A stretch of DNA of 44,068 bases, from the IMG/VR virus record IMGVR_UViG_2541047745_000010. One strand, given 5' to 3'. This stretch comes from a virus (taxonomy: Duplodnaviria > Heunggongvirae > Uroviricota > Caudoviricetes). Shown here in pieces: positions 19,408 through 20,181 of this stretch. The position numbers were made by a program, and so were the translations under genes. The number at the start of each line of letters is the position of its first letter. Within the stretch, counting starts at the first letter, position 1. The notes below the pieces were generated by a model. It was not told the origin of the DNA and ran no database searches. It was given only the letters and a program-made list of their open reading frames with translations.

Positions 19408-20181
19408 TCAGGCGGGATAAGAATGGGAGGAGGGAAAAACGATTTCTTTATAACAGCGACAATTCGGGAGCTCGCCAGCGTGACCGGTCATGCCATCAAG
19501 CGTTGGAGGTTTGCCCCATTCGACAAATTTACCTTCCATTTCCCGATGAGAATGCCTGACGTCACCATCTTCGGCTGTACGCCAGATATAACCATTCGAA
19601 CCAATTGCCAGCGCACGCGCCTGATCCAGCGCGCCGGTTGCACGTCCAAGTTCAGTACGGGCAATCAGGTCAGCTCTGGACTTTGCTATATCACCCGATG
19701 CGGCTATTTCTTTAGCAAAATGTTCCGCTCTCCCACCGGTCACAACAGCTTCAATCGCCCGATTCTGGATGTCGTACACCCTGTCAGCCGCCTCGAGGGG
19801 TAGCGATTTAATGTACTTAACCTGTTCAGCAACGATGGATTTCATCACCTGCCCTGGCGGGGCACTGTTTACCAGATTGCGTAGCTCACGGCTGATGGTT
19901 TTGCTGTGTTTACGCCACTGCTCATCATTCTTGCGCACAATATCGGCGGTAAAGTTTTCCGCGACCTTTGTCGCCCAGGGGGTGATGATTTCACTGTAGC
20001 GTTCCAGCGCCTCAATAATTTCCGTGATACTGTCATTTGAACCATCGTAGTGACCATTTACGATGTCCCCGACCGCCCGCGCTATCCTGCGTAGGCTGGT
20101 TCGATACCGGATTTCCGCCTGACGGTTCCTGCGGTTCGTCATCAGGTTCGCCGATGCCGGGCGGCGCTTCATCTTCGGCAT
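19408..20181 (-). CDS. head morphogenesis protein (Mu gpF / SPP1 gp7 family)
   Basis: 257 aa; ATG at 20181 with GAGGA RBS; follows the portal gene. Confidence 0.75.
   Translation of the reverse strand: MPKMKRRPASANLMTNRRNRQAEIRYRTSLRRIARAVGDIVNGHYDGSNDSITEIIEALERYSEIITPWATKVAENFTADIVRKNDEQWRKHSKTISRELRNLVNSAPPGQVMKSIVAEQVKYIKSLPLEAADRVYDIQNRAIEAVVTGGRAEHFAKEIAASGDIAKSRADLIARTELGRATGALDQARALAIGSNGYIWRTAEDGDVRHSHREMEGKFVEWGKPPTLDGMTGHAGELPNCRCYKEIVFPSSHSYPA

Follow-up and report, generated by a model that had tools for sequence, protein, structure and literature searches.

A 149-nt out-of-frame overlap between the portal and MuF-like genes of a SEN34-like Escherichia coli prophage is conserved in relatives and probably maintained in both reading frames

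In a SEN34-like prophage, the portal gene and the MuF-like gene behind it share 149 nt, and this is very probably a genuine, maintained same-strand, out-of-frame overlap in which portal and MuF are separately translated and both readings are selected. Comparison of related loci establishes, at the level of sequence, that both frames are open, conserved and constrained and that the MuF start signal is conserved as well. The DNA examined, here called the window, is the whole 44,068-nt stretch of IMG/VR record IMGVR_UViG_2541047745_000010, and the minus strand is the coding strand of all genes in this part of it. The relevant features are as follows.

20033..21499, minus strand: portal gene, an ORF of 488 aa with its stop TGA at 20035-20033
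19408..20181, minus strand: MuF-like head-morphogenesis (minor head) gene, an ORF of 257 aa with its ATG at 20181-20179
20033..20181, minus strand: dual-coding overlap of 149 nt, comprising portal codons 440-488 plus the stop and MuF codons 1-50
20190..20194, minus strand: MuF Shine-Dalgarno (SD) sequence GAGGA, within the portal codons D-E-D, 8 nt before the ATG
20179..20181, minus strand: MuF start codon ATG, whose T doubles as the third, synonymous position of the portal Asn440 codon
20140..20142, minus strand: alternative ATG at MuF Met14, the choice of RefSeq/PGAP, which gives 244 aa and a 110-nt overlap
20122..20181, minus strand: first part of the overlap, the putatively ancestral acidic portal motif (…ENAEDEAPPGIGEPDDEPQE), whose +1 reading is the basic MuF N-terminus (MPKMKRRPASANLMTNRRNR)
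20036..20121, minus strand: second part of the overlap, the putatively ancestral MuF segment (QAEIRYRTSLRRIARAVGDIVNGHYDGSN), whose portal-frame reading is the tail …PSGGNPVSNQPTQDSAGGRGHRKWSLRWFK

By comparison of the two ORFs, the MuF frame is offset by +1 from that of portal, and the doubly read coding stretch measures 146 nt. A sequence-only reading had reported a 149-nt portal/MuF overlap, and the two minus-strand ORFs do share 20033..20181. It had also described the portal extension as an acidic tail, which fits the shared portal tail over its first ~20 residues (portal residues ~440-460, NAEDEAPPGIGEPDDEPQEPS) and fails for the last ~28 (GGNPVSNQPTQDSAGGRGHRKWSLRWFK), which are neutral to basic; portal residues 440-488 include the stretch …SNQPTQDSAGGRGHRKW. 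Over 20122-20181 the portal reading contains eight D/E and no K/R, and the +1 MuF reading contains seven K/R and no D/E.

Database matches and gene order identify both partners. The portal protein matches PF06381 (Phage_portal_3, DUF1073) over residues 55-402 (E 6.7e-106, 354.4 bits against a cut-off of 33.8) and the PHROG portal family phrog_146 (E 1.9e-174). The solved portals nearest to it are Pam3 8hds (E 2.7e-37) and 9jlf, with E217 gp19 also matched, and RefSeq gives the portal the same coordinates under the name DUF1073 protein. MuF matches PF04233 (Phage_Mu_F) over residues 137-243 (E 1.9e-17, 64.5 bits against a cut-off of 29.6) and the PHROG head morphogenesis family phrog_324 over residues 6-255 (E 1.5e-90). 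The portal gene stands directly after the large terminase in the packaging module: the terminase ORF (21499..23121, matching PHROG phrog_2) adjoins it upstream, with 1 nt common to the stop of the one and the start of the other (TGATG). The MuF gene is immediately downstream of the portal gene and is followed by genes for a DUF2213 protein, a cement protein and the major capsid protein. The portal and MuF-like identifications are thereby supported, as is the start at 20181 by the evidence given below.

These genes belong to an E. coli prophage that is a temperate myovirus of the SEN34/Brunovirus-like kind. A prophage in the E. coli AVS0790 chromosome matches the window region at 100% identity, related sequence is present in 382 of 5426 complete E. 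coli genomes, and NZ_CP124436, 100% identical to the window, carries the RefSeq MuF annotation. Identity is 99.3% to Escherichia phage vB_EcoM-606R2 and its relatives and 80-87% to Salmonella phage SEN34 (Brunovirus), Citrobacter phage Omnitron and Hafnia phage yong1; SEN34, a myovirus by morphology, is temperate (PMC5261728).

The overlap recurs throughout these relatives. When the window was compared with four phages (vB_EcoM-606R2, SEN34, yong1 and Omnitron), the overlap aligned gap-free with both frames open at 80-99% nucleotide identity, the portal stop being shifted by one codon (TGA to CGA TAG) in two of the four (L003 and L004). In IMG/VR, 80 contigs carry a close MuF relative, 78 of which could be evaluated; all 78 have an ATG at the same place, a MuF of 257-258 aa and an overlap of 149 or 152 nt, and the set contains 22 distinct nucleotide versions of the overlap. 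A scan taking one genome per species gave 49 loci with MuF identities of 40-88%. The Enterobacterales contribute 34 species-level loci, with overlaps of 134-179 nt and MuF identity down to 54%.

Public records disagree on where MuF begins. Essentially the same gene is given 176 aa (GTG 19938, ON470579), 202 aa (SEN34 and yong1), 244/245 aa (ATG 20142, RefSeq) or 257 aa (metagenome gene calls), four different starts that exist because gene callers penalise long overlaps. RefSeq already has a 110-nt overlap for this portal/MuF pair. At the protein level, an alignment of 22 homologues shows that MuF residues ~14-50 (…QAEIRYRTSLRxIAxAVGDIVNGxYDGSNDS…) are conserved down to 59% identity, with G38, I40, Y45, D46, S48 and N49 invariant. 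This stretch can be aligned in homologues from Xenorhabdus, Arsenophonus, Providencia, Pantoea, Acinetobacter and Burkholderiales, and the MuF segment in the overlap region is conserved down to 40% identity, with or without an overlapping portal.

The distribution of variable sites changes at the ATG. Among four divergent phage genomes, 308 of 439 sites at portal codon position 3 vary upstream of the ATG (against 54 and 28 at positions 1 and 2), and 113 of 208 at MuF position 3 vary downstream of the portal stop. Inside the overlap the variable sites are mixed and lower in total, MuF position 3 having the highest count (17 of 48). In the locus alignment, MuF codons 21-49 are less conserved at position 3 than at the other two. 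The first 20 MuF codons, by contrast, show no clear codon periodicity in the locus alignment, and the protein is variable there, with indels; alignment columns upstream of the ATG, which lie on a non-coding frame, were disregarded. The choice between 20181 and 20142 as the exact start therefore depends on how well start codon and SD are conserved, and not on a signal in the protein.

That conservation points to 20181. The sequence-only reading had called the ATG and ribosome-binding site there well placed, and the wider comparison agrees: the column holds ATG in 31 and GTG in 3 of the 34 Enterobacterales loci with the long overlap, and an SD-like site with the same spacing is present in every one of them, with duplex energies of -5.2 to -9.0 kcal/mol (-5.9 kcal/mol for the GAGGA of the window). 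The start column is kept even in a Xenorhabdus sub-clade that has GGGGAG as its SD and a portal C-terminal region of unrelated sequence. On the portal side, the N/D/S codon at the start column ends in T in 34/34 loci. Other in-frame MuF starts, including the 20142 of RefSeq, are not conserved as starts across loci, and seven loci have no alternative start within the first 22 MuF codons. An in-frame ATG five codons further upstream, seen in several relatives ('MRISxM'), was considered and rejected for the window; the window has ACG at this codon, and the SD is weak in most loci.

We accordingly place the MuF start at 20181 from these alignments and keep 20142 as a minor alternative, since codons 1-20 lack a clear periodicity. 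Under that alternative the overlap would still be real, but MuF would begin at Met14, giving the 244-aa protein and 110-nt overlap of RefSeq. PGAP picks this ATG in a 100%-identical E. coli genome and in more than 1000 clustered proteins, M, L or V (ATG/TTG/GTG) occurs near the Met14 column in many relatives, and there is little protein-level constraint on the preceding codons. Nevertheless, we consider a start at Met14 unlikely: the codon in that column is a non-start in many loci, several loci have no start there at all, and its SD in the window is weak (-2.1 against -5.9 kcal/mol for 20181), whereas the 20181 column combines ATG or GTG with an SD in 34/34 loci, including the sub-clade in which the surrounding portal sequence is unrelated. 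Structural comparison added nothing on this point. An AlphaFold2 model of MuF had a mean pLDDT of 55, with the N-terminus below 50, which is too poor to place residues 1-50 in a fold; a search of sequences of solved structures (PDB) with MuF alone or with an alignment profile gave no matches; and the structure search gave no sequence evidence for a MuF module inside the long Pam3 portal (621 aa).

Selection acts on the portal reading of the same nucleotides as well. We kept the MuF protein of each locus fixed and drew synonymous codons from local codon usage. In the 34 loci, whose kinship means that the per-locus probabilities are not independent, the resampled portal frame ran uninterrupted to the stop seen in nature in 4.5% of draws (median; range 1.1-17%; 3.5% for the window). 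The argument depends on synonymous sites that are well diverged at 54-70% protein identity. The real portal frame is open in all 34, to nearly the same codon. The third frame contains 2-5 stops in the overlap across loci (five in the window). In a control on the non-overlapping remainder of MuF, read in the same relative frame, 435 stops were found against 393 expected, and off-frame stops are thus not avoided in general.

Synonymous variation leads to the same view. The comparison with flanking MuF codons of the same sequences partly allows for kinship: among pairs with the same amino acid, the fraction of synonymous differences is 0.37 for MuF codons 1-49 and 0.565 for codons 50-250, and the per-column medians are 0.44 in the overlap and 0.56 downstream (Mann-Whitney p 3.6e-6). 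Several MuF codons are almost fixed, some of them on rare forms. Leu30 is CTA in 31/34 loci (5.5% of Leu codons in the background), Ile33 is ATA in 33/34 (15% of Ile codons) and Gly47 is GGT in 33/34 (background 32%); Asp46 is GAT in 32/34 loci, and Tyr45 is TAC in all 34, where TAT would give a premature portal TGA. These choices are sensible only in the portal frame, where they preserve Thr, Ser and the terminal R-W-F. Taken at the level of codons, the data indicate purifying selection on both readings of the overlap.

A functionless portal extension, tolerated as read-through while only MuF is constrained, is very unlikely on this evidence. It is true that the portal tail is of low complexity (P, G, S, D, E), that its first half varies, that the Pfam portal domain stops short of it at residue 402, and that the solved homologous portal 9jlf ends ~5 residues past the equivalent of window residue 452. 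Elongation of an upstream gene at its 3' end can, moreover, create long overlaps in the absence of selection (PMC3887535). However, a neutral tail would soon be truncated, ~3 stops being expected per 48 codons in that frame, and the open-frame probability is ~0.045 per locus, yet the frame stays open in every locus; the fixed synonymous sites of MuF, some on rare codons, also keep specific portal residues.

As for expression, the most likely mechanism is that ribosomes initiate MuF independently within the portal ORF, so that two separate proteins are made. Portal would be translated through to the TGA at 20035-20033, and MuF would be translated independently from its own SD (20194-20190) and ATG (20181) within the portal ORF. 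Near the MuF start the RNA has no more structure than its shuffled counterparts (z +1.17), which is consistent with an accessible internal initiation site. Folding at the MuF start and at the portal stop revealed neither an SD-sequestering hairpin nor a frameshift stimulator (z +1.17 and -0.81), and an Rfam scan of the whole window gave nothing in or near the overlap. A literature search for proteomics or ribosome profiling of the SEN34-type phage group found none. One may speculate that the arrangement ties the synthesis or level of MuF to portal synthesis. Termination-reinitiation coupling was rejected, the MuF start lying 146 nt upstream of the portal stop; stop and start are spaced closely enough for reinitiation only in the most distant relatives (L131 and L133, with an 8-nt overlap).

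The +1 position of MuF relative to portal also raises the question of a programmed +1 ribosomal frameshift in the overlap, which would produce a portal-MuF fusion besides or instead of a separate MuF. Fusions of the two modules exist elsewhere, as MuF residues 17-249 match positions 487-709 of the PHROG 'portal protein' family phrog_2662, and MuF-type proteins bind the portal in SPP1 (summarised in PMC5576092). We nonetheless regard a frameshift as extremely improbable. The SD and ATG/GTG conserved in 34/34 loci make it unnecessary, and the sole candidate shift context (the AAA-TGA of the portal stop) varies among relatives, with CGA-TAG in L003 and L004. Beyond the stretches explained by conserved residues of the two frames there is no invariant heptamer; RNA structure is significant neither at the start nor at the stop, the region has no Rfam match, and a portal domain is present in none of the 120 best MuF homologues.

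The weakest explanation, an assembly or sequencing indel that masks a true portal stop near 20181 or a MuF that begins only after 20033, draws on depositor annotations that start MuF at GTG 19938 (176 aa, ON470579) or at an ATG just past the portal stop (202 aa, SEN34 and yong1), and is refuted by comparisons in which more than 110 independent assemblies have an identical frame structure without indels, the annotated MuF ATG of SEN34 is ATT (Ile56) in the window, and the sequence upstream of the 176- and 202-aa starts is conserved MuF protein with third-position variation in the MuF frame. The sequence-only reading had left the choice between an indel and a genuine overlap to an alignment of portal homologues. 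The homologous portals share both the extension and the overlap, gap-free and with both frames open, which disposes of the indel and bears out the genuine overlap.

We next consider how the genuine overlap may have arisen. The portal motif ITDEDIxxAEDEAPP is present in all homologues, including those with almost no overlap, and the Enterobacterales have the MuF ATG within this motif. Every homologue likewise has the MuF N-terminal segment, and what varies is the position of the portal-frame stop relative to this segment. In the most distant loci the portal stop is at the very beginning of MuF, with overlaps of 26 nt (L129) or 8 nt (L131 and L133); in Acinetobacter and some Betaproteobacteria it is part-way into the MuF segment (74-128 nt); and in all Enterobacterales and Pandoraea it comes just after the YDGSN motif. 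Because the distant loci with overlaps of 8-26 nt keep the same MuF segment, the long overlap appears to be derived.

From this distribution we infer that, in the Enterobacterales lineage, the two gene ends underwent a "telescoping". Two elements would be ancestral, MuF residues ~21-50 and the portal motif ITDEDIxxAEDEAPP. Portal would have gained an extension of ~29 residues across the conserved N-terminal segment of MuF, and MuF a basic N-terminal extension of ~20 residues across the acidic motif of portal. The MuF start would have moved up into the portal acidic motif, where the +1 reading of GAR/GAY codons yields the basic MPKMKRR…. For same-strand overlaps, 3' elongation of the upstream gene is the commoner route (PMC3887535).

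The portal C-terminus itself deserves mention. The tail ends in a selectively preserved L-R-W-F-K motif lying over the invariant YDGSN codons of MuF. A Trp-containing C-terminal motif also recurs where the overlap is only 8 nt (LKAWVNG in L133 and LIAWVKGNA in L131, compared with SLRWFK here), which could reflect convergence on a functional C-terminal motif or chance.

A further and tentative idea, to which we attach a low probability, is that the oppositely charged, co-encoded termini form a docking interface between MuF and portal and that the MuF ribosome-binding site inside the portal ORF might set a low MuF:portal stoichiometry. If this were true, a single piece of DNA would tie the interface to its expression ratio. 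Portal binding and a few copies per capsid are known for SPP1 gp7 only (PMC5576092).

Compared with known systems, the overlap is of a familiar kind. Among annotated viral overlaps 84% are shorter than 50 nt, and 61% of dsDNA virus genomes have at least one longer than 50 nt (PMC7017920); the 149 nt found here belong to the long tail of viral overlaps and are not exceptional. As in other long same-strand viral overlaps, the two genes are co-directional and share more than 50 nt in different frames (PMC7017920, PMC3887535). Also shared are one end formed by 3' elongation of the upstream gene, a newer reading of low complexity and suppressed synonymous variation. Unlike overprinting, in which a new ORF arises within an old gene, both partners here would contribute an ancestral conserved segment, each extended over the other.

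In gene order, the pair resembles SPP1 gp6 and gp7 or Mu gpH and gpF, where muf directly follows the portal gene within the packaging/head module (PMC5576092), and, as in the portal-MuF pair of tailed phages, PF04233 and a portal Pfam family are both matched. The window portal differs from that of SPP1 in being of the PF06381 (DUF1073) type and not the gp6 type, and the window MuF has no toxin extension. The portal-MuF fusions of phrog_2662 link the same two modules at the gene level, with MuF directly after the portal C-terminus; here, in contrast, the modules are in different frames and MuF has a separate SD and ATG, and no in-frame portal-MuF fusion was found in 120 homologues or the ~130 loci examined. 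Short coupling overlaps (ATGA/TGATG) occur nearby, the same operon using one at the terminase/portal junction and distant portal/MuF relatives overlapping by 8 nt, but unlike these the 149-nt overlap cannot work by termination-reinitiation at the stop.

Literature searches on the SEN34-type portal/MuF pair and on portal-MuF overlaps found no description of the long overlap. What is new is limited to selection on both frames, the reciprocal extension and the resolution of the start codon; this is an ordinary kind of gene overlap, well supported, and no new kind of system. Its value for annotation is that comparative evidence fixes the MuF start at the 20181 position and the portal at 488 aa. 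Since the fixation of rare codons in one frame keeps residues in the other, the locus is well suited to testing methods for the detection of dual coding. The portal C-terminal tail and the MuF N-terminus are open to experiment because mutations that are silent in one frame disrupt the other. The portal/MuF junction would represent a clean, well-replicated terminal overlap, each gene reaching across a conserved, ancestral stretch of the other, with selection on both readings.

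The overlap between the portal gene and the head-morphogenesis gene MuF was compared across relative loci from a scan of one genome per species for MuF homologues. In the Xenorhabdus loci L101, L103, L105, L106 and L110, the C-terminal region of the portal differs (…NGAQISSMVEIVSSVAAG…GSVGNGF…, locus positions ~2450-2615) and the Shine-Dalgarno sequence, GGGGAG, is not that of the other loci. The MuF overlap of these Xenorhabdus loci is still 134-149 nt and the portal tail end …LRWF(K/Q) is kept. Portal C-termini containing tryptophan were also found in L131, L133, L120 and L132 (LIAWVKGNA, LKAWVNG, LSRWRS and LSAWRSKRRADD). 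These ends are similar to SLRWFK of the window, also in loci whose MuF overlap is as short as 8 nt, and the likeness may be due to convergence or chance.

The MuF match in L104 (Apirhabdus apintestini CP138906, locus 2501-3270) spans 770 nt, which is not divisible by 3, and its frame is broken between residues 50 and 68. Probably this genome has a pseudogene here or contains a sequencing error. Using tblastn, we found no PF06381-type portal within 2.5 kb upstream of the MuF homologue in L108 (the second locus of Pantoea stewartii) and in L123 (an Acidobacteriota MAG), which may have another portal type or another gene order.

The junction preceding the portal in the window has the usual short coupling overlap, in contrast to the 149 nt of the next one, portal/MuF:

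21497-21501, minus strand, terminase stop/portal start junction TGATG, one base common to both codons
21499-23121, minus strand, terminase large subunit, 540 aa

The terminase large subunit gave no Pfam-A match at E<=0.01; PHROG phrog_2 was the sole profile to recognise it (E 8.7e-32), and RefSeq labels it 'hypothetical protein'.

Comparing the MuF gene of the window (19408-20181) with public records ON470579, NC_028699, NC_073022 and NZ_CP124436, we found four MuF starts annotated for one gene, giving 176, 202, 244/245 and 257 aa. An overlap of this length is apparently shunned by gene-calling programs. Where the annotations of SEN34 and yong1, related Salmonella and Hafnia phages, begin MuF at ATG, the window has ATT.

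Residues 17-249 of the MuF protein (19411-20181) match the C-terminal third of PHROG phrog_2662, a family with the name 'portal protein' and a profile of length 717; hence, other phages have portal and MuF fused in frame. Major-capsid (PF09950) and MuF (PF04233) domains are joined in P0097 (388 aa, ENA), probably a chimeric gene call.

The window also contains gathering-level Rfam matches:

29178-29352, minus strand, sok antitoxin RNA
37088-37139, plus strand, DicF
41836-42014, minus strand, RalA
43463-43607, both strands, SraC/RyeA-SdsR/RyeB pair

The last match suggests that the prophage adjoins the chromosomal ryeA/ryeB small-RNA locus.
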